Positions 1,435-59,057 are shown, numbered from the stretch's first letter. The stretch: DNA of 64,000 nucleotides from Candidatus Zambryskibacteria bacterium RIFCSPHIGHO2_01_FULL_43_25 (GCA_001823695.1 MHVD01000015.1:2445-66444); one strand, 5' to 3'. Numbers and translations are program-made. The notes: generated from the letters alone by a model not told the origin.

Positions 1435-3327
1435 TTACAGCAAACTTTCCGGGTCCACCTTGACATTGAAATATGGCGGCAGAGCCTTGATTTTGTCCGA
1501 TAAGCCATGGTTTGGCCAGTCGTCAGGGGCAACCCTCAGAAGCATATTTTTGGAGAAATTGCCTTTCGGGCTCGGCAGAAGACTTTCAAAAATACGCGGT
1601 TCATATTCGGCAAATATCTTTTGCAGTTTTTCCATCTCTTTTTCTACGGCGAGTTTCCTGCCTTCCGCCGTGACTTTGATGAAAACTGAAAATGGGGGAT
1701 ACAGAAACTTTTTCCGTTCTTCTATTTCCTCCCGATAAAAATCAATCAAGTTGCCTCTCAATACAAAATCAAAAATCTTAGCATCCGCATTTCTAGTCTG
1801 TATCAAAAATTTCTTCTGTGAAAGTGAGCGCATTTTGACTAAAAGATAGAGAACTCTTTCATTTATTCTGAAGTCGGGAACGGAAAGCAGTGAGTCAATG
1901 GAAGCTACGGCACAAGCGCCCAATTTGCTGGACAGGAAATTCAGAGCCATCTCCGTGCCGATTAGGACGCTTCCCGGAGTTTCTTCAAAGCGCGAAATAA
2001 GTTCAACTGCTTTCTTTGGAGTGCTCACTCTTTCCTTATCCATCGAAAATGTCGGAATTTTTGGAAAAAGCTTCTTCAGCTCTTGTTCAACAAGCTCAAT
2101 GCCGATGCCCAGAGTCGTCAGTTTCCAGCTCTTGCAATTGACGCATCGCTCGGCGGCCCCGCGCCTCTCCCCGCAGCGGTTGCATTGGAAGAAATTTTCC
2201 TTGTCTCCCTTGCCGCTATAGAGCACGACCGGAGAGCTGCACCTATTGCACAAAACAACCTTGCCGCAATCTCCGCAGACGGTTGTCGGCGATAGGCCCT
2301 TTCTGGCGGAGAAGATAAACAAATGACTGTTGGTTTCTCTCGTTTCTCCAATGAGTGTTTCAAGTTCCGGACTTATGACTCTGAAATCCGAGCTGAATTT
2401 TCCCCGTTCGGTTTTCATGTCAATAATCATTCCTCTGGCCGGCGACAAGGGGCGGAACTTAAGCGGAGAAAACTCCACAAACTCCTCCTTGTCTTTTCTC
2501 CAGATTGTTTCTGCGGAGAGCATTATGTCGCCGGCAATGAAACGGGCGCCGGACAGTCTTGCAAACTTTTCGACGAATCTCCGCAGGTCAATGAAAGGTC
2601 TTGACTGCGTTCTAAAGTTGCGGGAATTTTCCCTGTCTAGAACGATTACTCGGACGTCACTTCGGCAGAGACAGAGGAATGAGGCAGTGGCGATTATAAG
2701 CAAGGGGTGGTCTTCATTCTCCAAAAGCGAGATTGATTCGCGGAACTCTCTCTTGCCCAATTCGCTGTGAAAAACCGCCGTGTATTTTTCTATACCCTTT
2801 GTAAGCAGGTCTCTCGTTCTTCTGATATCCTCAATTGTCGGTGCGCAGAAAAACACAGACGACCTTCGGGCAAACTCTTCTCTGATTAGACTTCTGTAGT
2901 TGGCGAACCGTTCTTCATCATCGGCTTGAATGAGCAGTTTCTCGTGACTGTTTGATCTCGGCGAAAATTGCCCTGTTCTGATTTTTGCCGCATTGTCTCG
3001 GATTATCTTCGGCAGAAGGGTATTTAGGGTCGCGCCGAGCGGGGTGGCAAACCACTCGGAAGTTTCCTGCGCCGCGAACATAAAAGTTTGTGACAAGAAG
3101 TTTTCAGTTTTTACTCCCCCGATTTTCTTTAAAGAGAAATCGGATTTTCGGATTTTGGTGCGGGCTGCCACCACCCCTTCGCTTTCAATGACTAGGGCGA
3201 GAGAGCTTTTTCTTCTTAAGGGCACTGAAACTAAAGCGCCCGCCGGTATGGAATCGGGTCCAAAATAGGTAAGAATTTCCTTTGAGACGCCTCTAGTTAT
3301 GGGTATAACCTTATAAATCTTCATCAA
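1435..3327 (-). CDS. priA: primosomal protein N' (PriA)-like, with degenerate Walker A/B
   Basis: 630 aa; C-terminal Cys4 zinc-finger cluster (CGDCG...CNRC...CNRCG...CVNCK) and helicase-core segment align to PriA. The GxGKT position reads EERFANYRS and DEEH reads DREN. Confidence 0.65.
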   Translation of the reverse strand: MMKIYKVIPITRGVSKEILTYFGPDSIPAGALVSVPLRRKSSLALVIESEGVVAARTKIRKSDFSLKKIGGVKTENFLSQTFMFAAQETSEWFATPLGATLNTLLPKIIRDNAAKIRTGQFSPRSNSHEKLLIQADDEERFANYRSLIREEFARRSSVFFCAPTIEDIRRTRDLLTKGIEKYTAVFHSELGKREFRESISLLENEDHPLLIIATASFLCLCRSDVRVIVLDRENSRNFRTQSRPFIDLRRFVEKFARLSGARFIAGDIMLSAETIWRKDKEEFVEFSPLKFRPLSPARGMIIDMKTERGKFSSDFRVISPELETLIGETRETNSHLFIFSARKGLSPTTVCGDCGKVVLCNRCSSPVVLYSGKGDKENFFQCNRCGERRGAAERCVNCKSWKLTTLGIGIELVEQELKKLFPKIPTFSMDKERVSTPKKAVELISRFEETPGSVLIGTEMALNFLSSKLGACAVASIDSLLSVPDFRINERVLYLLVKMRSLSQKKFLIQTRNADAKIFDFVLRGNLIDFYREEIEERKKFLYPPFSVFIKVTAEGRKLAVEKEMEKLQKIFAEYEPRIFESLLPSPKGNFSKNMLLRVAPDDWPNHGLSDKIKALPPYFNVKVDPESLL

Positions 3328-6610: not shown

Positions 6611-6640
6611 TTGATAATCTTTCCTTGTCTGATAGAATAT

Positions 6641-6770
6641 CCCGTAGTAGAAAATGACATAGTGAATAATCACAGGAAAATAGACAAAACAATGGACAAA
6701 AAGTCGATATTACCAAAAGCATCAATAAGACAACCTACTCCAAAAGAGTAATGTCATTTTTCACTACGGG
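6641..6770 (+). repeat. inverted-repeat element (family a): CCCGTAGTAGAAAATGACAT ... ATGTCATTTTTCACTACGGG abutting frr ATG
   Basis: 20-bp arms are near-perfect reverse complements; second copy at 41647-41766. Confidence 0.6.
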
Positions 6771-7325
6771 ATGACGTATAATTTTTCTCCATTAAAACAG
6801 AAAATCTCCGAGACCGAAGAATGGCTCCGGAAGGAATTTTCAACAATCAGAACCGGCCGAGCAACACCGGTTATTCTGGATGCGGTCAGAGTTGACTCTT
6901 ACGGTTCCAAAATGCCTATAAACCAGATTGGCAGTATCAGCGTGGAAGATCCGAAAACTCTGCGAATTGTCCCTTGGGATATGACGCAGATAAAACCGAT
7001 TGAAAAAGCTGTCGTTGAAGCCAACCTTGGACTCTCCGTGAATGTTGACGACAAGGGCTTGAGGGTGATTTTCCCCGAGCTGACAAGCGAACGCAGACAA
7101 TCTTTGGTAAAGGTTACAAAGCAAAAACTGGAAGAAGCTCGCATCGCCCTGCGGATAGAGAGGGAGAGGGTATGGGACGAAATACAAAATCAAGAAAAGA
7201 AAGGCGATATGGGCGAAGACGACAAGTTCCGTCTCAAGAATGATATGCAAAAAATAATTGACGAGGCGAATAAAAGACTTGAAGATTTCGGCGACAAGAA
7301 GGAGAAGGATATTTTAGAATCATAA
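6771..7325 (+). CDS. frr: ribosome recycling factor
   Basis: 184 aa; TIRTGRATP...DKGLRVIFPELTSERRQSL matches RRF. Confidence 0.9.
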   Translation: MTYNFSPLKQKISETEEWLRKEFSTIRTGRATPVILDAVRVDSYGSKMPINQIGSISVEDPKTLRIVPWDMTQIKPIEKAVVEANLGLSVNVDDKGLRVIFPELTSERRQSLVKVTKQKLEEARIALRIERERVWDEIQNQEKKGDMGEDDKFRLKNDMQKIIDEANKRLEDFGDKKEKDILES

Positions 7326-8602: not shown

Positions 8603-8706
8603 CTATTTATACCAATGAGGAAAATGGGAAGATTATGAAAATTGGAAAAAATAAGGAAATTTCGGAACTTTCCTATACTAGTATTTTGCAAAACACTAGT
8701 ATAGGA
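8603..8706. repeat. composite repeat unit: half of palindrome d + conserved 47-bp linker + 36-bp palindrome c (TCCTATACTAGTATTTTGCAAAACACTAGTATAGGA)
   Basis: Same unit in inverse orientation at 58826-58955 (~90% identical). Confidence 0.6.
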
Positions 8707-8836
8707 AATACAAAAGGAGCCCCGCACCCGTGACCGCTCCAATGAATCCGCCGAGACCCACGACGAGACCCCAGCCGAAACCTCCTTTCGTCTCTTGGTT
8801 TTTCTTCTTGAGCCACTGCCAGACATATCTGAACAT
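8696..8836 (-). CDS. 46-aa Gly-zipper hydrophobic peptide (GC-rich small gene)
   Basis: Manual translation MFRYVWQWLKKKNQETKGGFGWGLVVGLGGFIGAVTGAGLLLYFLY; ~60% GC; AAGGA 10 nt upstream; stop lies inside palindrome c. Confidence 0.3.
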   Translation of the reverse strand: MFRYVWQWLKKKNQETKGGFGWGLVVGLGGFIGAVTGAGLLLYFLY

Positions 8837-23720: not shown

Positions 23721-23943
23721 TACTGTATAATTTCTAACGGGATGAATCCCGTAAGAAATAGGAAATACTCCCTAGAAAGAAATTAAAACGGGGATTAAAG
23801 TTAATTATTTAAAAAAAGCCAAAATATTGGTTGCGATGCATAAGTATTTCCGTAATTAAACGGTTTCCGTTGTGCTAACACAACGAGTAAGGGTGATATG
23901 AACGGAGTTTTACAAGATAAACTGCATAATTTCTAACGGGATG
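23721..23943 (+). repeat. start-codon-abutting element (family g) copy 1
   Basis: 5' end ...ATGAATCCCGTAAGAAATAGGAAAT, 3' end TTTACAAGATAAACTGCATAATTTCTAACGGG fused to ftsI ATG. Confidence 0.65.
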
Positions 23944-25692: not shown

Positions 25693-25911
25693 CAATTTCT
25701 TACGGAATGAATCCCGTTAGAAATAGGAAATGCCAATAAACAAAAATTAGATATAAACAAGTCATGACTTTACTCGAAAAAGAAGCGGGGATAAGAAACT
25801 GGAGCTCAGGCATTTCCGTTGAAGAAAATGACTTTAGCCGTATTAATATAAGATGTATCGGTATGTCCAAATTGGCTTTACAAAATTAACTCATGGATTT
25901 CTTACGGGATG
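25693..25911 (+). repeat. start-codon-abutting element (family g) copy 2
   Basis: Same terminal sequences as copy 1, variable interior; 3' end fused to murF ATG. Confidence 0.65.
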
Positions 25912-28365: not shown

Positions 28366-28432
28366 TTAAAACAGAACAAATATATCATTTTTACAAGAAA
28401 AATGTTAGATTTTTTGCTTTATTTAATTTGTT

Positions 28433-28462
28433 ATTCTAGTATTTTGCAAAACATTAGAATAG
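28433..28462. repeat. degenerate copy of palindrome c (TATTCTAGTATTTTGCAAAACATTAGAATA)
   Basis: Shares CTAGTATTTTGCAAAAC core with copies at 8671 and 58826. Confidence 0.4.
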
Positions 28463-29271: not shown

Positions 29272-29278
29272 ACTGACT

Positions 29279-29318
29279 ATTCTATTTGATATTTTGCGCA
29301 AAATATCAAATAGAATAC
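29279..29318. repeat. 40-bp perfect palindrome (family e): TATTCTATTTGATATTTTGCGCAAAATATCAAATAGAATA
   Basis: Second copy at 31669-31698. Confidence 0.5.
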
Positions 29319-30323: not shown

Positions 30324-30389
30324 GATGTGGGGCCGGTTTCTAATGGGGCGATGAAAGCATCAAAAAAAGCGAAAAGTCTCAAAAACCCA

Positions 30390-30427
30390 TTGGTATAATA
30401 AATAACGATCGTTATTTATTATACCAA
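30390..30427. repeat. 38-bp perfect palindrome (family d): TTGGTATAATAAATAACGATCGTTATTTATTATACCAA
   Basis: Identical copies at 35049-35084 and 58917-58954; each arm contains extended -10-like TGGTATAAT. Confidence 0.55.
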
Positions 30428-30502
30428 TCCGGAAATTCAAAAAAAGTGATGGCAAGAGGGAGAGTGAATTGGGGAAAATCAATGAAATCTTACAACGGGA
30501 CA

Positions 30503-31668: not shown

Positions 31669-31698
31669 ATATTTGATATTTTGCGCAAAATATCAAAT
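31669..31698. repeat. palindrome family e copy 2 (TATTTGATATTTTGCGCAAAATATCAAATA)
   Basis: Identical 30-bp core to 29279-29318. Confidence 0.45.
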
Positions 31699-31757
31699 AG
31701 ATAAGGTAAAAAATAAACGAAGTTTAGTTAACTATGCAAAGCCGGACTTTGCATAAA

Positions 31758-34914: not shown

Positions 34915-35048
34915 TTCCTAACTAGGAAATTTCGCATTAGGGCATCCTATCCAAGGGCGACATCGTTTAATTGTATTAGCCGCCAAGAGGGTGAAGAGGA
35001 GCTTATTGTGTAACTGCGGAAAATCCCCAGTCTCCAATAAATTGTTAA

Positions 35049-35084
35049 TGGTATAATAAATAACGATCGTTATTTATTATACCA
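35049..35084. repeat. palindrome family d copy 2
   Basis: Identical to 30390-30427 core. Confidence 0.55.
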
Positions 35085-35136
35085 ATTAGAAAAACGTCAA
35101 AATTTAAGGAAACGTCAAGATTCTGTTATTAAGAAA

Positions 35137-37584: not shown

Positions 37585-37634
37585 AATAAGAATTAGGAAT
37601 AAGGAATTAAGAATGACCTGTTTCTAACGGGATG
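37585..37634 (+). repeat. family f tandem repeat fused to a solo family g 3' end (GACCTGTTTCTAACGGGATGAA) with no downstream gene
   Basis: ATG followed by stop after 4 codons. Confidence 0.45.
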
Positions 37635-41554: not shown

Positions 41555-41595
41555 GTAGTATGGTTGTCTGTAGTTTGAATATAAGTCCCGTTAGA

Positions 41596-41766
41596 AACTG
41601 CGGGGAACGAATCGGGATAACATGAAAATGATAAATCCTGTAGTAGAAAATGACATTGTAGAAACTAGGAAAAGGGAGATACTTTAAAAAATAATGGAGG
41701 CAAATTTATCAATTATAATTACAAGACAAATTACTCGTAAGGAGTAATGTCATTTTTCACTACAGG
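41596..41766 (+). repeat. hybrid element: family g 5' arm (TCCCGTTAGAAAC) + family a arms (CCTGTAGTAGAAAATGACAT ... ATGTCATTTTTCACTACAGG) abutting rplI ATG
   Basis: Read directly. Confidence 0.55.
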
Positions 41767-42213
41767 ATGAAAGTCATACTCTTAAAAGATATTGCCAAAA
41801 TCGGCCATAAATACGAAGTGAAAAATGTCGCCGAAGGGTATGCGCAGAACTTTCTTTTTCCAAGAGGATTGGCAAAGATGGCTACTAGTTCCGCAATAAA
41901 TGAGTTGGAAGTTCTGAAAAGACAGCACGAGGAGGAAAGAAAGATAAGAGAGGATTTACTTTTGAAAAACTTAGGAGACGTAGAGTCGCTTATCATTGAA
42001 ACCGAAGAAAAAGCCAATGACCAAGGTCACTTATTTGCTGGTATTAATGCGCTGGAAATAGCAGAGATTATAAAAGAAAAAAGCAGACTGGATATTCCTG
42101 TTCAATGCATTGAGCTTGAAAAGCCGATAAAGGAAATCGGAGAACACAAAATTCCTCTGAAAATTCAGGACAAAAAAGCGGAGTTTACTTTAGTAGTAAA
42201 AGCAAAAGTATAG
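41767..42213 (+). CDS. rplI: 50S ribosomal protein L9
   Basis: MKVILLKDI...NFLFPRGLA L9 N-domain. Confidence 0.85.
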   Translation: MKVILLKDIAKIGHKYEVKNVAEGYAQNFLFPRGLAKMATSSAINELEVLKRQHEEERKIREDLLLKNLGDVESLIIETEEKANDQGHLFAGINALEIAEIIKEKSRLDIPVQCIELEKPIKEIGEHKIPLKIQDKKAEFTLVVKAKV

Positions 42214-45200: not shown

Positions 45201-45216
45201 ATAATTTTTTAACGGG

Positions 45217-45897
45217 ATGGATATCGTTATTGCAAAAAAAATAAGAAAATCTTTTCATGATGGTGAGAAAGAACTTGCTGTTTTGAAAGGGCTTGACCTT
45301 TCTGTCAAAAGGGGAGAATTCTTATCAATAACCGGCCGATCCGGTTCGGGTAAGAGCACCCTTCTTTATCAGCTGGGACTTCTTGACAGTCCGAACTCGG
45401 GAGAAATTTATATTGATGGCATTGAGATTACTTCGCTCTCCAACGACGAGAGAACAATGATGCGGCTTGGAGAGCTGGGGTACATTTTCCAAGATTATGC
45501 TCTGGTGCCGGAGTTGTCAGCTCTCGAAAACGTTTTGGTCCCGCTTCTGATGCAGGGCCTGAGCGCGGACAAAGCCAGGGAAAAAGCCAAACTTTCTCTT
45601 GAGAAAATAGGCCTCAGCGATCGGTTTGACCACTTGCCGAACCAGCTTTCCGGAGGGGAACAGCAGAGAGTTGCCATTGCCCGAGCGGTAGCTCATGACC
45701 CGAAGATTATCTTTGCCGACGAGCCGACAGCCAACCTGGACAGCGAAACGGCGGATGTAGTTCTCCAAAATTTTCTTGACCTCAACCGAGAAGGGCAGAC
45801 GATAATAATGGTGACTCACGAGCCTGAGTATGCGTCCTTAACTCATCGCATCGTCCAGCTTTCGGATGGCGTTATTGCTTCAGAAGTAGTAAATTAA
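45217..45897 (+). CDS. ABC transporter ATP-binding protein (MacB/LolD-type)
   Basis: Walker A GRSGSGKST, signature LSGGEQQRVAIARA, Walker B IIFADE. Confidence 0.85.
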   Translation: MDIVIAKKIRKSFHDGEKELAVLKGLDLSVKRGEFLSITGRSGSGKSTLLYQLGLLDSPNSGEIYIDGIEITSLSNDERTMMRLGELGYIFQDYALVPELSALENVLVPLLMQGLSADKAREKAKLSLEKIGLSDRFDHLPNQLSGGEQQRVAIARAVAHDPKIIFADEPTANLDSETADVVLQNFLDLNREGQTIIMVTHEPEYASLTHRIVQLSDGVIASEVVN

Positions 45898-45903
45898 AGA
45901 AAA

Positions 45904-46106
45904 AATGAATCCCGTAAGAAATAGGAAATGTAACATATATGAAAATAAAAAAGCAAACAATTTATATACTCGAAAAAGGAGATGCGGCTGGTTGTGGGAC
46001 ATAAACATTTCCGTAGTTAAATAGTTGGTAGGTATATTAATATTGAGCAAATAAGAAAAATTCATTTAAATTTTACAAGACAAACTAAATAATTTCTAAC
46101 GGGATG
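45904..46106 (+). repeat. start-codon-abutting element (family g) copy 3
   Basis: Flanked by ATGAA on both sides; removal plus one ATGAA restores a 16-bp spacer between ATPase stop and hlyD ATG. Confidence 0.65.
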
Positions 46107-53246: not shown

Positions 53247-54605
53247 TTATTTTCTGCCGGTTTCTGCGTCTATCTTTCGGACAGCTTCTTTTATTCTCTC
53301 AGAAGTTTCTTTCTTGCCAAGTATCTGAGCCAAAACAAAGGGATCTGGTGATTTATCTTTTCCTGAAAGTGCTACCCTAAAAGGCCACAGAACTGCTCCT
53401 CTCCCCTCTTTTTCCGCATAGCTCCAGATAAATCCTTTCACTTTTTCTGCTGAAAGTTCTTTTTCATCCTGTTCTTGAAGTATTGCTCCAACCGTATTCA
53501 GATGACGGATTATGTCGCTCTTTTCTTGCTCTCCTTTGTAATTTAACACGGACGCGCCGTAAACGGGTTTTTCAAAAAAATAGTCTAAATCTCCGGAAGC
53601 CATAAGCTCGTCAACTTCTGACCATTTTGATATTCTTTCTGAAATTAACGGCTCAATTTTCCCGGCGAGGTCCTCCCCGCTTCCCCACTCTCTATCTTTT
53701 GATTTTTCTGACTGAATAATTTTTTCTATAATGATTTTCTTTCTTTCCTCTTCAGGCATTCTTTTTATATGTTCCTTGTTGACCCAGAGCAGCTTGTTCT
53801 CGTCGAATATAGCTCCTCCTTTTTGAATTCGCGATAAATCAAAAACTTCAACAAGTTCTTTCATAGAAAATATTTCCCTGTCGTCATCGGGATGCCAGCC
53901 AAGAAGCGCCAGGTAATTCACCATAGCTTCCGGCAAGAAACCCCTGTCTTTAAACTCGTTTATTGACACTGCCCCGTGCCTTTTGGACATTTTTGATCTG
54001 TCTTTGGCCAATATAAGCGGAATATGGCTGTACTTGGGCCGAGGCGCTCCTATGGCCTCCTGAATCAAAATCTGCCTTGGGGTGTTTGATATATGGTCTT
54101 CGCCGCGTATCACATGATTAATGTTCATTTCGAAGTCATCAACAACCACCGCAAAATGATACAGCGGTTCGTCCATTGATCTGGCTATGACAAAATCACC
54201 CAACTCTTCTGTGTTGAAACTGACTTGCCCGCGGACAGTATCTTCAAAAGAAATGTCTCTGTTTGGATTTCTAAATCTAATCACTTCATCTCTATTTCCA
54301 CCCTCTTCCTCTTTTGACAAATAAGCCTTGTTTTCGTCAATCAGCTTCTTCAGCCATTTTTTGTGCGAGTCTATTCTTTCTGACTGTCTGTAAAATTCGT
54401 CGTATTTTATTCCAAGCCAGTTGAAGCCGTCTATAATATTTTTCTCATATTCCGGTTTGTTTCTTTCCTTGTCGGTGTCTTCAATTCGTACGATAAAAAC
54501 CCCGCCCTCCTTTCTGGCAAACAAGAAATTAAACAACGCAGTTCGCGCAGTGCCTATATGCAGATTACCCGTCGGAGACGGGGCAATTCTTACTCGTGGC
54601 GTCAT
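53247..54605 (-). CDS. gltX: glutamyl-tRNA synthetase
   Basis: PSPTGNLHIGTART (HIGH) and KMSKRHG. Confidence 0.9.
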   Translation of the reverse strand: MTPRVRIAPSPTGNLHIGTARTALFNFLFARKEGGVFIVRIEDTDKERNKPEYEKNIIDGFNWLGIKYDEFYRQSERIDSHKKWLKKLIDENKAYLSKEEEGGNRDEVIRFRNPNRDISFEDTVRGQVSFNTEELGDFVIARSMDEPLYHFAVVVDDFEMNINHVIRGEDHISNTPRQILIQEAIGAPRPKYSHIPLILAKDRSKMSKRHGAVSINEFKDRGFLPEAMVNYLALLGWHPDDDREIFSMKELVEVFDLSRIQKGGAIFDENKLLWVNKEHIKRMPEEERKKIIIEKIIQSEKSKDREWGSGEDLAGKIEPLISERISKWSEVDELMASGDLDYFFEKPVYGASVLNYKGEQEKSDIIRHLNTVGAILQEQDEKELSAEKVKGFIWSYAEKEGRGAVLWPFRVALSGKDKSPDPFVLAQILGKKETSERIKEAVRKIDAETGRK

Positions 54606-54789
54606 TCTGTTAGAAGCAGGAAACGCACTTGCCGTTTCTGCCTGAAATTTTAAGAATATTAAACTTATTTTGACTGTACTGTTCCATCATTTACACATTA
54701 CCACACTTCAGTCCAGTATATAAATTTCCGTCTTTTTTTGATTGAATGATGTAAGTGTAATACATGGCTTCAGACATTTGTTATGGGAC

Positions 54790-55917
54790 TTATTGTTCGT
54801 GTTTTAGGGCGATTTTTAGTATTTCTTCGGCTATGAGAGTGGCCGCATCAGCTCTGACGAAATTTTTTGTTGACTCTTTCATTTTTTGATAAAGTTCCGG
54901 ATCGCTGGTTATTCTTTCAATTTCGGCAAACAAAATATTTCCGGACAGATTATTTTGCTCAATCACGGCTGCCGCTCCCGTTCTGGCATAGGCGAAGGCG
55001 TTTTTCGTCTGGTGGTCGCCGTTTGAGCTTGGTATTGGAATGATTATGCTTGGTATGCCCCACGATGCGATTTCAAATATGCTTGAACCGGCGCGCGAGA
55101 TGACTATTGTAGCCGCTCCGGCGGCTGATCGAAGCTCAAGATCGTTCAAAAACGGAAACGCCTTGTAGCGATTTTTGTTCGGATTATTTTGCAACACCAC
55201 TTCGACGGTTTTCTTGACTTCATCCAAATGATCTTTGCCGGTCTGGTGGATTATCTGATATTTCTCAACAAGCTTAGGCAGTGCTTCCATCATGACTTCA
55301 TTTATAGCGCTGGCTCCCAAAGAACCTCCCAAGATAAGCACTACGGGAATGTTCTTATCTAATCCGAAATACTCGTGGGCATTTGCGGAAAGCGTCTCTC
55401 TTATCTCTTTTCGTATCGGCTGGCCGGTAAAGGCAACCTTGTCCTTCGGGAAATATTTTGCCGCGTCCTGATAAGAGACAGCTATTCTTCTGGCGAATTT
55501 TGCCGCCCAGAGATTTGTCTTGCCCGGAACGGAATCCGACTCGTGAATAACTACGGGAATGCGGAGAATTCTTGCGGCGAAGAGCGCCGGGAAGCTGGCA
55601 TACCCGCCCTTGCCAAAAACCACATCGGGATATACCAAGAAAATTTCCCAAACCGATTTGATAATGCCCCAGCCGGTTTTGAACAAGTCAAAAAAGTTAA
55701 GGACCGAGAAGTATCTTCTGATTTTGCCGGCGTAGTTTTTCTTGAAAATCAGATTGTTGTCGTAGAGTATTCCCTGATTGTAGGGGCTGTGGGACATAAA
55801 ATACAGCTCAAAATCAACCATTCTGTTTTCTCCGGCAATCCGCTTTAGTTCCTGCGCTATTGCGACTATTGGGTAGAAATGACCTCCTGTTCCTCCTCCT
55901 GTAAGTAAAAATTTCAT
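54790..55917 (-). CDS. murG: UDP-GlcNAc:lipid I GlcNAc transferase MurG
   Basis: GGGTGGHFYP N-terminal G-loop. Confidence 0.85.
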   Translation of the reverse strand: MKFLLTGGGTGGHFYPIVAIAQELKRIAGENRMVDFELYFMSHSPYNQGILYDNNLIFKKNYAGKIRRYFSVLNFFDLFKTGWGIIKSVWEIFLVYPDVVFGKGGYASFPALFAARILRIPVVIHESDSVPGKTNLWAAKFARRIAVSYQDAAKYFPKDKVAFTGQPIRKEIRETLSANAHEYFGLDKNIPVVLILGGSLGASAINEVMMEALPKLVEKYQIIHQTGKDHLDEVKKTVEVVLQNNPNKNRYKAFPFLNDLELRSAAGAATIVISRAGSSIFEIASWGIPSIIIPIPSSNGDHQTKNAFAYARTGAAAVIEQNNLSGNILFAEIERITSDPELYQKMKESTKNFVRADAATLIAEEILKIALKHEQ

Positions 55918-58678: not shown

Positions 58679-58870
58679 ATGGCGATCCACGAGTTCCTTG
58701 CAGACGACGAGCAGTATGTCGTCGGCGAGAAAATGTTCGCACGAGCCAAGATCAGACCGCGGCTTGGCTACCCCGACGACCACATCCGTCAGTTGACGGA
58801 GTGGTGTCGGGACTCTTTTTGTTTTCTCTATACTAGTGTTTTGCAAAACACTAGTATAGGAGAGTTCTGA
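58679..58870 (+). CDS. 63-aa hypothetical protein in GC island
   Basis: Ends at TCCGTCAGTTGACGGA hairpin; C-terminus runs into palindrome c so true stop uncertain. Confidence 0.2.
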   Translation: MAIHEFLADDEQYVVGEKMFARAKIRPRLGYPDDHIRQLTEWCRDSFCFLYTSVLQNTSIGEF

Positions 58871-58955
58871 AATTTCCTTATTTTTTCCAATTTCCATAAT
58901 CTTCCCATTTTCCTCATTGGTATAATAAATAACGATCGTTATTTATTATACCAAT
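58826..58955. repeat. composite repeat unit: palindrome c + 47-bp linker + palindrome d (inverse orientation of 8603-8706 unit)
   Basis: CTCTATACTAGTGTTTTGCAAAACACTAGTATAGGAGAG ... TTGGTATAATAAATAACGATCGTTATTTATTATACCAA. Confidence 0.6.
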
Positions 58956-59057
58956 GGGTTTTCATTTGAAAGAGGGTAGATTTTTCTTTTCAGGTTTTAG
59001 GTTTTAAGTTAAATGTTATAAGTTACATTTTTTGGTTGTGGTCACGCTCTTGCCAAG

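Follow-up and report, generated by a model that had tools for sequence, protein, structure and literature searches.

MITEs that form RNA hairpins in the 5′ regions of genes are known, such as Correia, ERIC and RUP, as are palindromic elements that occupy "forbidden" sites, the Rickettsia palindromic elements (RPEs). Correia elements of Neisseria, ERIC/IRU of enterobacteria and RUP of pneumococcus measure about 100-150 bp, carry terminal inverted repeats of 20-26 bp around a sequence with no ORF, are flanked by a short target duplication, and occur in many copies with presence/absence polymorphism; co-transcribed as a hairpin, they are able to alter the expression of a neighbouring gene. The elements described here resemble them in all these respects, yet differ in that their target is the start codon (ATGRA), which is rebuilt, in that they keep one polarity and form arrays of mixed sub-families, and in that their interiors diverge far faster than their arms while the family spans many orders of a phylum. 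We know of no parent IS for them. RPEs, like the present elements, are small palindromic mobile elements tolerated at normally forbidden positions with the host gene remaining functional, but they insert in frame within coding sequence and are translated, whereas here the element lies outside the ORF and the first codon is regenerated.

We analysed a 64-kb stretch of DNA (the window), in which two such elements abut the start codons of frr and rplI. Our preferred reading, to which we give a probability of roughly 60%, is that they are non-autonomous, MITE-like foldback mobile DNA belonging to a superfamily found throughout the Patescibacteria, which targets start codons and whose interior and 3′ arm are co-opted as a leader.

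Element 1 precedes frr (ribosome recycling factor, 184 aa; Pfam RRF, PF01765), which occupies 6771-7325 on the plus strand. Inverted-repeat detection returned the plus-strand arm cores CCCGTAGTAGAAAATGACAT (6641-6660) and ATGTCATTTTTCACTACGGG (6751-6770), at the positions given by the earlier note, and the repeat extends to 22-nt arms, ATCCCGTAGTAGAAAATGACAT (6639-6660) and ATGTCATTTTTCACTACGGGAT (6751-6772), of the form ATCCCG…CGGGAT, 91% complementary and 90 nt apart. The last two bases of the extended 3′ arm are the A and T of the frr ATG at 6771, which thereby belong to the inverted repeat. The interior (6661-6750) is A-rich, has no long ORF and ends at its 3′ side in a small hairpin, TACTC (6736-6740), loop CAAAA and GAGTA (6746-6750). 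Read as sequence, 6751-6774 is a mini-ORF, ATG TCA TTT TTC ACT ACG GGA TGA (MSFFTTG*), which is preceded by AAAGAG and whose stop overlaps the frr start as ATGA. The RNA of element 1 is predicted to fold at -39.1 kcal/mol (z = -7.4 versus shuffles).

Element 2 lies before rplI (ribosomal protein L9, 148 aa; 41767-42213, plus strand; Pfam L9). Its arm cores were detected at 41637-41656 and 41747-41766, and the start of 41647 that had been reported for it should read 41637. The inverted repeat extends to 41635-41657 and 41746-41768, with the 22-nt arms ATCCTGTAGTAGAAAATGACAT (41635-41656) and ATGTCATTTTTCACTACAGGAT (41747-41768) enclosing an interior at 41657-41746; the 3′ arm overlaps the rplI ATG at 41767, the A and T of which form part of the repeat. 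The layout is that of element 1: a hairpin at the 3′ end of the interior (TACTC at 41732-41736, loop GTAAG, GAGTA at 41742-41746), a similar mini-ORF at 41747-41770 and a stable predicted RNA fold (-35.6 kcal/mol, z = -6.7 versus shuffles). The junction is atypical, the upstream ATGA being separated from the 5′ arm by TA. Further upstream, the 5′ arm of a second arm type, family g, which the earlier note had also seen, is indeed present, though as CCCGTTAGAAAC at 41587-41598 and not at 41596-41608, and a 46-nt mini family-g-like hairpin insert (TCCCGTTAGAAAC…ATCGGGAT; 41580-41625, plus strand) is absent from the orthologous site of a 77%-identical relative (L148).

Both window copies share the extended repeat ATCC(C/T)GTAG…CTAC(G/A)GGAT. 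Since no match to the arms occurred in 100 dinucleotide shuffles, the arms are not due to chance, and the near-identical inverted repeats abutting the two start codons, as first described, are borne out by both the arm and the shuffle tests. Within the 64-kb window this arm type (sub-family 2) is limited to the two copies before frr and rplI. Their interiors had been taken for unrelated, a view that has to be given up: they align at 58 of 96 columns (z = 4.5 versus shuffles) and are diverged homologues. Indeed, copies within one genome are 58-98% identical in their interiors, which are A-rich, variable and inherited together with the arms.

When one genome per species was scanned for exact matches to ATGTCATTTTYYACTACRGGAT, 54 stretches from about 26 assemblies were returned, and beyond the window some 54 copies with these arms are counted in about 24 Patescibacteria MAGs. 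As the sample was gathered with an exact 22-mer, it is biased to conserved arms, and the conservation of one arm, though not that of its partner, is partly so by construction. Nearly all matches fall within the Patescibacteria of the Parcubacteria/Paceibacteria type, namely Wolfebacteria, Nomurabacteria, Zambryskiibacteria, Vogelbacteria and "Paceibacterota". The recurrence and conservation of the arms, on which the earlier note had made its proposal depend, are thus observed, both in the 54 stretches (about 26 assemblies) and in the rplI copy conserved in a relative. Pairing of arms gave 56 distinct oriented elements, the two window copies included, with interiors of 73-130 nt. At least 14 copies were found in the Wolfebacteria MAG NORP133 and at least 8 in H52-bin030_1; roughly 15-30 copies per genome are seen or expected.

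Two minimal members of the superfamily were also noticed, one a hairpin of about 31 nt, TCTGTAGTAGAGTGAAACTTCACTATAGGAT, with a 5-nt loop (L032, about 2440-2545, minus strand) and the other a short element whose arms, GTAGTAGAAGTTGGCAT and ATGCCAACTTCACTAC, enclose an interior of 28 nt (L053, about 230-320). In a viral contig (L152, 528-794; IMG/VR UViG_3300033141_001491) the exact 22-nt arm ATCCTGTAGTAGAAAATGACAT stands in frame within an 88-aa phage ORF (…GGNPVVENDMGG…) and has no partner arm; the ORF looks beta-grasp-like, and the arm encodes NPVVEND, as does the upstream-ATG frame of canonical elements. With about 0.1 matches expected by a rough estimate, this phage arm is probably a chance occurrence, and neither of the matches in the viral-contig scan (this one and a chance match in a tail-like gene) is an element.

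The flanks of the copies carry the signature of insertion. Ends of the type ATCCCGTAGTAG…CTACTACGGGAT are typically flanked by a duplicated start codon, ATGN-ATCCCG…CGGG-ATGN, and the fourth base is the same on both flanks in all 32 solitary copies (25 A, 6 G, 1 T), where 20.7 matches are expected under independence and none of 100,000 permutations reached 32. In nearly all copies an A follows as the fifth base, and the target can therefore be written ATG-R-A. As the element itself ends in AT, the length of the duplication can be given only as 2-5 nt. Copies often form head-to-tail arrays separated by nothing but the duplicated bases (…CGGGAT-GA-ATCCCG…), including arrays in which sub-family 2 and family g are mixed and which therefore indicate that the two share their ends. 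Such arrays are the outcome that repeated insertion into a regenerated target would give.

Family g is itself well represented in the window, with four full copies and several solo or degenerate arms, all four full copies being on the plus strand. They stand before a PBP transpeptidase (23748-23940, with a partial 3′-arm duplicate and ATGA at 23730-23747), a Mur ligase (25713-25908), L21 (34284-34426, with ATGG on both sides) and a HlyD-type protein (45911-46103, with ATGA on both sides). Before the copy at the Mur ligase, 25695-25712 likewise holds a partial 3′-arm duplicate and ATGA. Family g and sub-family 2 have their termini, ATCCCGT…ACGGGAT, and their junction in common, and in arrays such as those of L007, L010 and L049 a sub-family-2 3′ arm is followed by GAATCCCGTTAGAGA; the kinship of the two, suspected from the resemblance of their arms, is thereby confirmed.

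Thirty downstream ORFs were tested against Pfam, and the products include DnaA, DnaN, TopA, SMC, FtsW (twice), PBP, GluRS (gltX), SSB, RpoD, TruB, L2, DnaJ, PilB and others, a functionally unrelated and mostly housekeeping set. Their Pfam domains begin at residues 1-5, and the ATG rebuilt at the arm is therefore the true start. It had been remarked that both sub-family-2 copies of the window sit before genes of the translation apparatus; in view of these 30 other copies, and of the PBP, Mur ligase, L21 and HlyD-type genes behind family g in the window, that association is a coincidence. In all 56 copies the interior is oriented the same way with respect to the gene, even in those variants in which the arm mismatches are swapped. 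A fixed polarity would not be expected of neutral selfish insertions.

The same observation bears on whether the arms could be recombination sites at which a promoter-bearing interior is flipped, as in invertons. Inverted repeats of 20-22 bp flanking 75-130 bp upstream of genes, and the swapped arm mismatch of some copies, would suit such a switch. An inverton, however, should be met with in both interior orientations, and only one occurred in the assemblies examined: it is common to the 56 copies and to all five assemblies in which the frr locus is free of gaps (a sixth is interrupted there by Ns). Moreover, the genes are essential housekeeping genes, and arrays and duplicated start codons are not inverton features, which leaves inversion a very improbable explanation indeed. 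A public scaffold of the same strain (L003) that looked like an empty frr site with a shorter spacer was rejected as such, as it has a run of Ns, a scaffold gap, inside the frr element (2881-2890); the repeat apparently breaks short-read assemblies.

Orthologous sites with and without the element could be compared for both genes. At frr, four syntenic relatives (Frr identity 81%, 78%, 76% and 73%) share the order MreB, holB, a hypothetical 163-aa ORF, frr and an M50 protease, and none has the element; more distant relatives lack it too, the empty sites ranging overall over 56-81% Frr identity. The empty spacer is 25-36 nt long and reads …TGnTA(G/A/C)AAT-N8-ATGGC…, with the -10 box 8 nt before the ATG, and element 1 occupies exactly the gap between this conserved -10 box and the frr ATG. 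In the window the strong ancestral promoter, TTGATA-16 nt-TAGAAT, whose -10 box is preceded by TG (6611-6638, plus strand; 10/12 consensus matches), ends at 6638 and abuts the element directly, and its -10 box is the one kept in the four element-free relatives. The junction is atypical. The N8-ATGG of the relatives is missing, 12 nt apparently having been replaced, and there is no canonical duplication; relative to the relatives the fourth base has changed from G to A, and the second codon is ACG where all four have GCN. The frr copy is a young and derived form of the element, and its insertion needs an extra deletion or a recombinational route.

At rplI, the site is filled in the 77% relative L148 and empty in 65% and 61% relatives, and rplI of a Nomurabacteria MAG bears an independent copy. 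The L148 copy is orthologous and identical to that of the window at 120 of 133 nt (90%), with 22/22 nt in the 3′ arm and 83/90 nt in the interior, but its 5′ arm has decayed; the rplI coding sequences are 71% identical and their third codon positions 39%. The 3′ arm and the interior are thus conserved far above the synonymous sites of rplI and must be under purifying selection, which is not the case for the helix as such. The rplI copy is, to judge from this comparison, an old and derived form that was probably co-opted as the 5′ leader of its gene. A conserved leader peptide (MNPVVEND… from the upstream ATG, or interior ORFs of 17-19 codons) was considered and rejected, as ORF lengths vary from 7 to 47 codons and a codon-by-codon reading of the window/L148 alignment finds mostly non-synonymous changes in these ORFs.

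Purifying selection on the interior and 3′ arm at rplI, together with the fixed polarity, would also be expected of a host cis-regulatory leader, a structured 5′ UTR acting as a translational operator, ribosome shunt or attenuator with a host factor in trans, and spread by duplication. Part of the start codon is tied up in the helix, rplI bears a copy in two distant lineages, and the arm sequence is strongly conserved across orders; such near-invariant arms could reflect a conserved host factor and not a transposase. Nonetheless, a gene-specific autoregulatory leader would be kept before the same gene in related lineages, whereas frr is without a copy in four close relatives, as are the orthologues of several other genes that bear the element, so that the regulation is not conserved gene by gene. 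The downstream genes have no common function, the duplicated ATGN with its matching fourth base and the tandem arrays are signatures of insertion, and the interiors of the copies compared have no conserved core to which a ligand or protein might bind. We therefore regard a host regulatory leader as unlikely.

The properties just described, namely duplication, arrays, polymorphism, family structure and the functional incoherence of the downstream genes, lead us to a MITE-like mobile element. In fact, what is found is what defines MITEs: 22-nt terminal inverted repeats bounding a short (<300 bp) sequence with no ORF (interiors of 73-130 nt), a flanking target duplication, ATGN (the window frr copy being without it), multiple dispersed and related copies per genome (at least 14 in NORP133, with interiors 58-98% identical) and insertion polymorphism at the orthologous frr and rplI sites. 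An exclusive location at start codons in a single polarity is unusual for a neutral MITE, and either strong targeting or strong selection would be required. No transposase or autonomous partner with these terminal repeats is present in the window. When termini up to 3.5 kb apart were paired in the fetched loci, mismatched pairs alone were obtained, with a motif that matches the termini of family g and not the sub-family-2 ends.

On the MITE-like reading, the element would integrate at the start codon of a gene, at ATG-R-A and in one polarity, duplicating 2 to 5 nt. Its right terminal repeat ends in …GGGAT, and with the duplicated G-N following it the start codon and the N-terminus would be rebuilt at the 3′ end of the insertion; repeated insertion into the duplicated target would yield the tandem arrays. 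Many of the targets would be genes with little or no leader, their -10 box lying 6 to 8 nt ahead of the ATG, and after insertion the gene would be read from its old promoter through the element. The interior and the 3′ arm would then become a 5′ leader and come under selection, a step to which the polarity and the conservation at rplI lead us, while the 5′ arm, needed only for mobility, would be free to decay. In sub-family 2, termination-reinitiation from the 7-codon mini-ORF ending in AUGA may be one way in which the internal AUG is translated. We infer DNA transposition as the means of spread from sequence, and the identity of the enzyme, the transcription starts and translation from the internal AUG likewise.

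In many copies a TATAAT-like box is found 6-12 nt ahead of the duplicated ATG. Many genes of the window likewise carry a TAnAAT box at 5-12 nt from their ATG, as does frr in the relatives, and few have a Shine-Dalgarno motif. This suggests that leaderless or very short-leader mRNAs are widespread in this organism, even though the enrichment of -10-box spacing at starts is only modest.

A leaderless context also invites the idea that the arm helix, 20-22 bp long in the transcript, serves as a punctuation mark at which the RNA is cut exactly 5′ of the AUG, by RNase III, RNase Y, trimming by RNase J or self-cleavage, to give a leaderless mRNA. Its removal from the RNA would then explain why the element is tolerated or even selected. 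The helix ends at, and takes in, the AU of the start codon in every copy, many targets have leaderless-gene geometry with the upstream duplicate ATGN as the original 5′-terminal AUG, and RNase III and RNase J are retained in CPR genomes (PMC12641178), which we count in its favour. However, in the orthologous rplI pair it is the 5′ arm that has decayed and the 3′ arm and interior that are conserved. At frr, where the promoter abuts element 1, transcription is predicted to start at about 6645-6647, inside the 5′ arm, and a full helix thus seems dispensable for expression; a transcript starting there should leave ACGGG-AUG unpaired. There is, moreover, no match to a ribozyme or other Rfam family, no invariant core in the interior and no bias of G·U over A·C, and cleavage of this kind seems to us rather improbable. 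A related and similarly doubtful idea is that of a mobile "start-codon cassette" for leaderless expression, in which the helix juxtaposes the original and the rebuilt AUG and either the RNA is cut 5′ of the AUG or ribosomes are shunted or reinitiate. Were it true, the elements would be more than selfish DNA, an insert of 130 nt at the first codon would be tolerable even in essential genes, and tRNA punctuation in mitochondria would be the analogue of the version with a cut.

Translational bypass, as in phage T4 gene 60 and the "byp" elements of Magnusiomyces mitochondria, resembles the present case in its mobile-looking insert, identical take-off and landing codons, hairpin and unchanged product. 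Bypass elements, however, lie inside the ORF and have a stop after the take-off codon, whereas here the insert stands before the ORF and it is the start codon that is repeated; the upstream ATG is followed by AAU, which is no stop codon. To account for the product, plain initiation at the downstream AUG is enough.

The structure of the arms was compared across the copies. In the helix, 98% of cells are paired and 10 of 19 pairs are invariant, with true compensatory changes that comprise GACAT/ATGTC to GGCAT/ATGCC and whole-block variants such as AATTTCAAAT/ATTTGAAATT and AAGTTGGCAT/ATGCCAACTT. The change from C-G to T-A that looks compensatory between the window copies was discarded as a general feature, given that about half of the copies pair CCCG with CAGG, with a C·A mismatch. 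The sub-family-2 arms are asymmetric, the 5′ arm reading …GTAGTAGAAAAT… and the 3′ arm …ATTTTTCACTAC…, and two neighbouring positions of the helix are therefore never Watson-Crick pairs (A·C + G·U) or, put otherwise, form two single-base bulges; in family g the helix has an A·A or T·T at its centre instead. Directly 5′ of the gene-proximal 3′ arm, a small hairpin, YRCTC-loop-GAGYR, is found in 38 of 47 distinct copies, with at least nine different, covarying stem sequences; stems of at least 5 bp occur in 60% of copies versus 21% at control positions. These small hairpins show no excess of G·U over A·C (13 versus 12) and hence give no sign of selection on the structure in the sense RNA in particular.

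Several candidate signals within the element were dismissed. A Shine-Dalgarno-like strand of the small hairpin (GAGY) is not a conserved feature, as the stems AAGC, GAAC, AAGT and GGTT keep the pairing and not the SD-like sequence; a terminator/antiterminator in which an interior AATGAC pairs with the 3′ arm has its motif in only 13 of 50 copies; and for an outward promoter in the 3′ arm with its start at the ATG there is no -10-like hexamer at the right distance. The -10-like hexamers of the interiors have no fixed position. The mini-ORF of the window copies has the consensus AUG UCA UUU UUC ACU ACR GGA UGA, with A(A/G)GAG before it and its end on the main AUGA. It is kept in most sub-family-2 copies and absent from the other arm variants and from family g, and termination-reinitiation is therefore at most an aid specific to the sub-family. 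Rfam 15 gave no match at gathering score in the window except one tRNA, and only chance-level hits in E-value mode.

Mobility itself might follow another route, with single-stranded DNA mobilised by an HUH/Y1 enzyme (REP/REPIN-RAYT or IS200/IS605-like) or with a site-specific recombinase acting at the palindromic junction. The sub-family-2 arms contain GTAG, the fixed non-Watson-Crick pair (A·C + G·T, or bulges) recalls the extrahelical bases that folded ssDNA substrates display, a subterminal hairpin lies some 22 nt from either end, and a 2-nt variable core (GA, GG or GT) is duplicated at both ends; for a recombinase, the junction …CTACGGGAT-GA-ATCCCGTAG… would present inverted half-sites around a 2-nt core. 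The likeness to REP/REPIN-RAYT systems also extends to hairpin doublets of about 100 nt, high copy number and no ORF. REPs, however, lie mostly at the 3′ ends of genes, extragenic and without duplication, with a 5′ GTAG beside a GC-rich palindrome, whereas the present elements stand at gene starts with a flanking duplication and AT-rich arms, and family g has GTAA or GTTA in place of GTAG. The subterminal hairpins vary in sequence between copies, unlike the ends of IS200/IS605. Integron attC sites also combine imperfect inverted repeats, unpaired at fixed positions, with variable interiors and a head-to-tail arrangement, yet the attC core sites (R′′/R′; RYYYAAC and GTTRRRY) are absent here, the ends being ATCCCGTAG and CTACGGGAT, and there are no cassette ORFs or integrase, the sites lying before syntenic housekeeping genes. 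Nor does the window show a gene for a RAYT, TnpA, integrase or serine recombinase. We consider this alternative mechanism of mobility quite improbable.

No description of such elements was found in Rfam or in the literature searched, and the targeting of start codons with rebuilding of the codon, in one polarity and phylum-wide, appears to be an undescribed habit. If the MITE-like reading is correct, a mobile element would have made its niche of the first codon of genes, where, splitting the start codon and building it anew, it could survive in the tiny, gene-dense genomes of the CPR. This would bear on the start of translation in the Patescibacteria (leaderless versus leadered mRNAs, reinitiation) and on the turnover of promoters and 5′ leaders in reduced genomes. 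It would also concern gene calling and assembly of CPR MAGs, in which the repeats would break scaffolds and create spurious upstream ATGs.

Other repeats of the window deserve mention. A solo family g arm, AATAATTTTTTAACGGG-ATG, stands at 45201-45219, directly before an ABC ATPase ORF at 45217, and a lone family g arm lies upstream of dnaB at 37620-37634. A degenerate family-g-like copy with arms TCCCATAACAAAT and GCTTCTAACAGA-ATG is found on the minus strand at 54606-54790, before a GluRS-like gene (ORF 53247-54605), the orthologue of which in Wolfebacteria NORP133 bears a sub-family-2 pair. Palindromes of two recurring types, TTTCCTATACTAGTATTTTGCAAA with its complement and TATTTGATATTTTGC/GCAAAATATCAAATA, occur at 8669-8708, 28432-28461 and 58828-58859, and also at 29278-29317 and 31670-31699. 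Finally, an intergenic palindrome of about 40 nt, (C)ATTGGTATAATAAATAACGAT/ATCGTTATTTATTATACCAAT(G), is present three times (30389-30428, 35042-35091 and 58915-58956), twice perfect and once 88% complementary; each copy has two facing TGGTATAAT extended -10 boxes, and a role as bidirectional promoter or operator is conceivable, as is membership of another repeat family.
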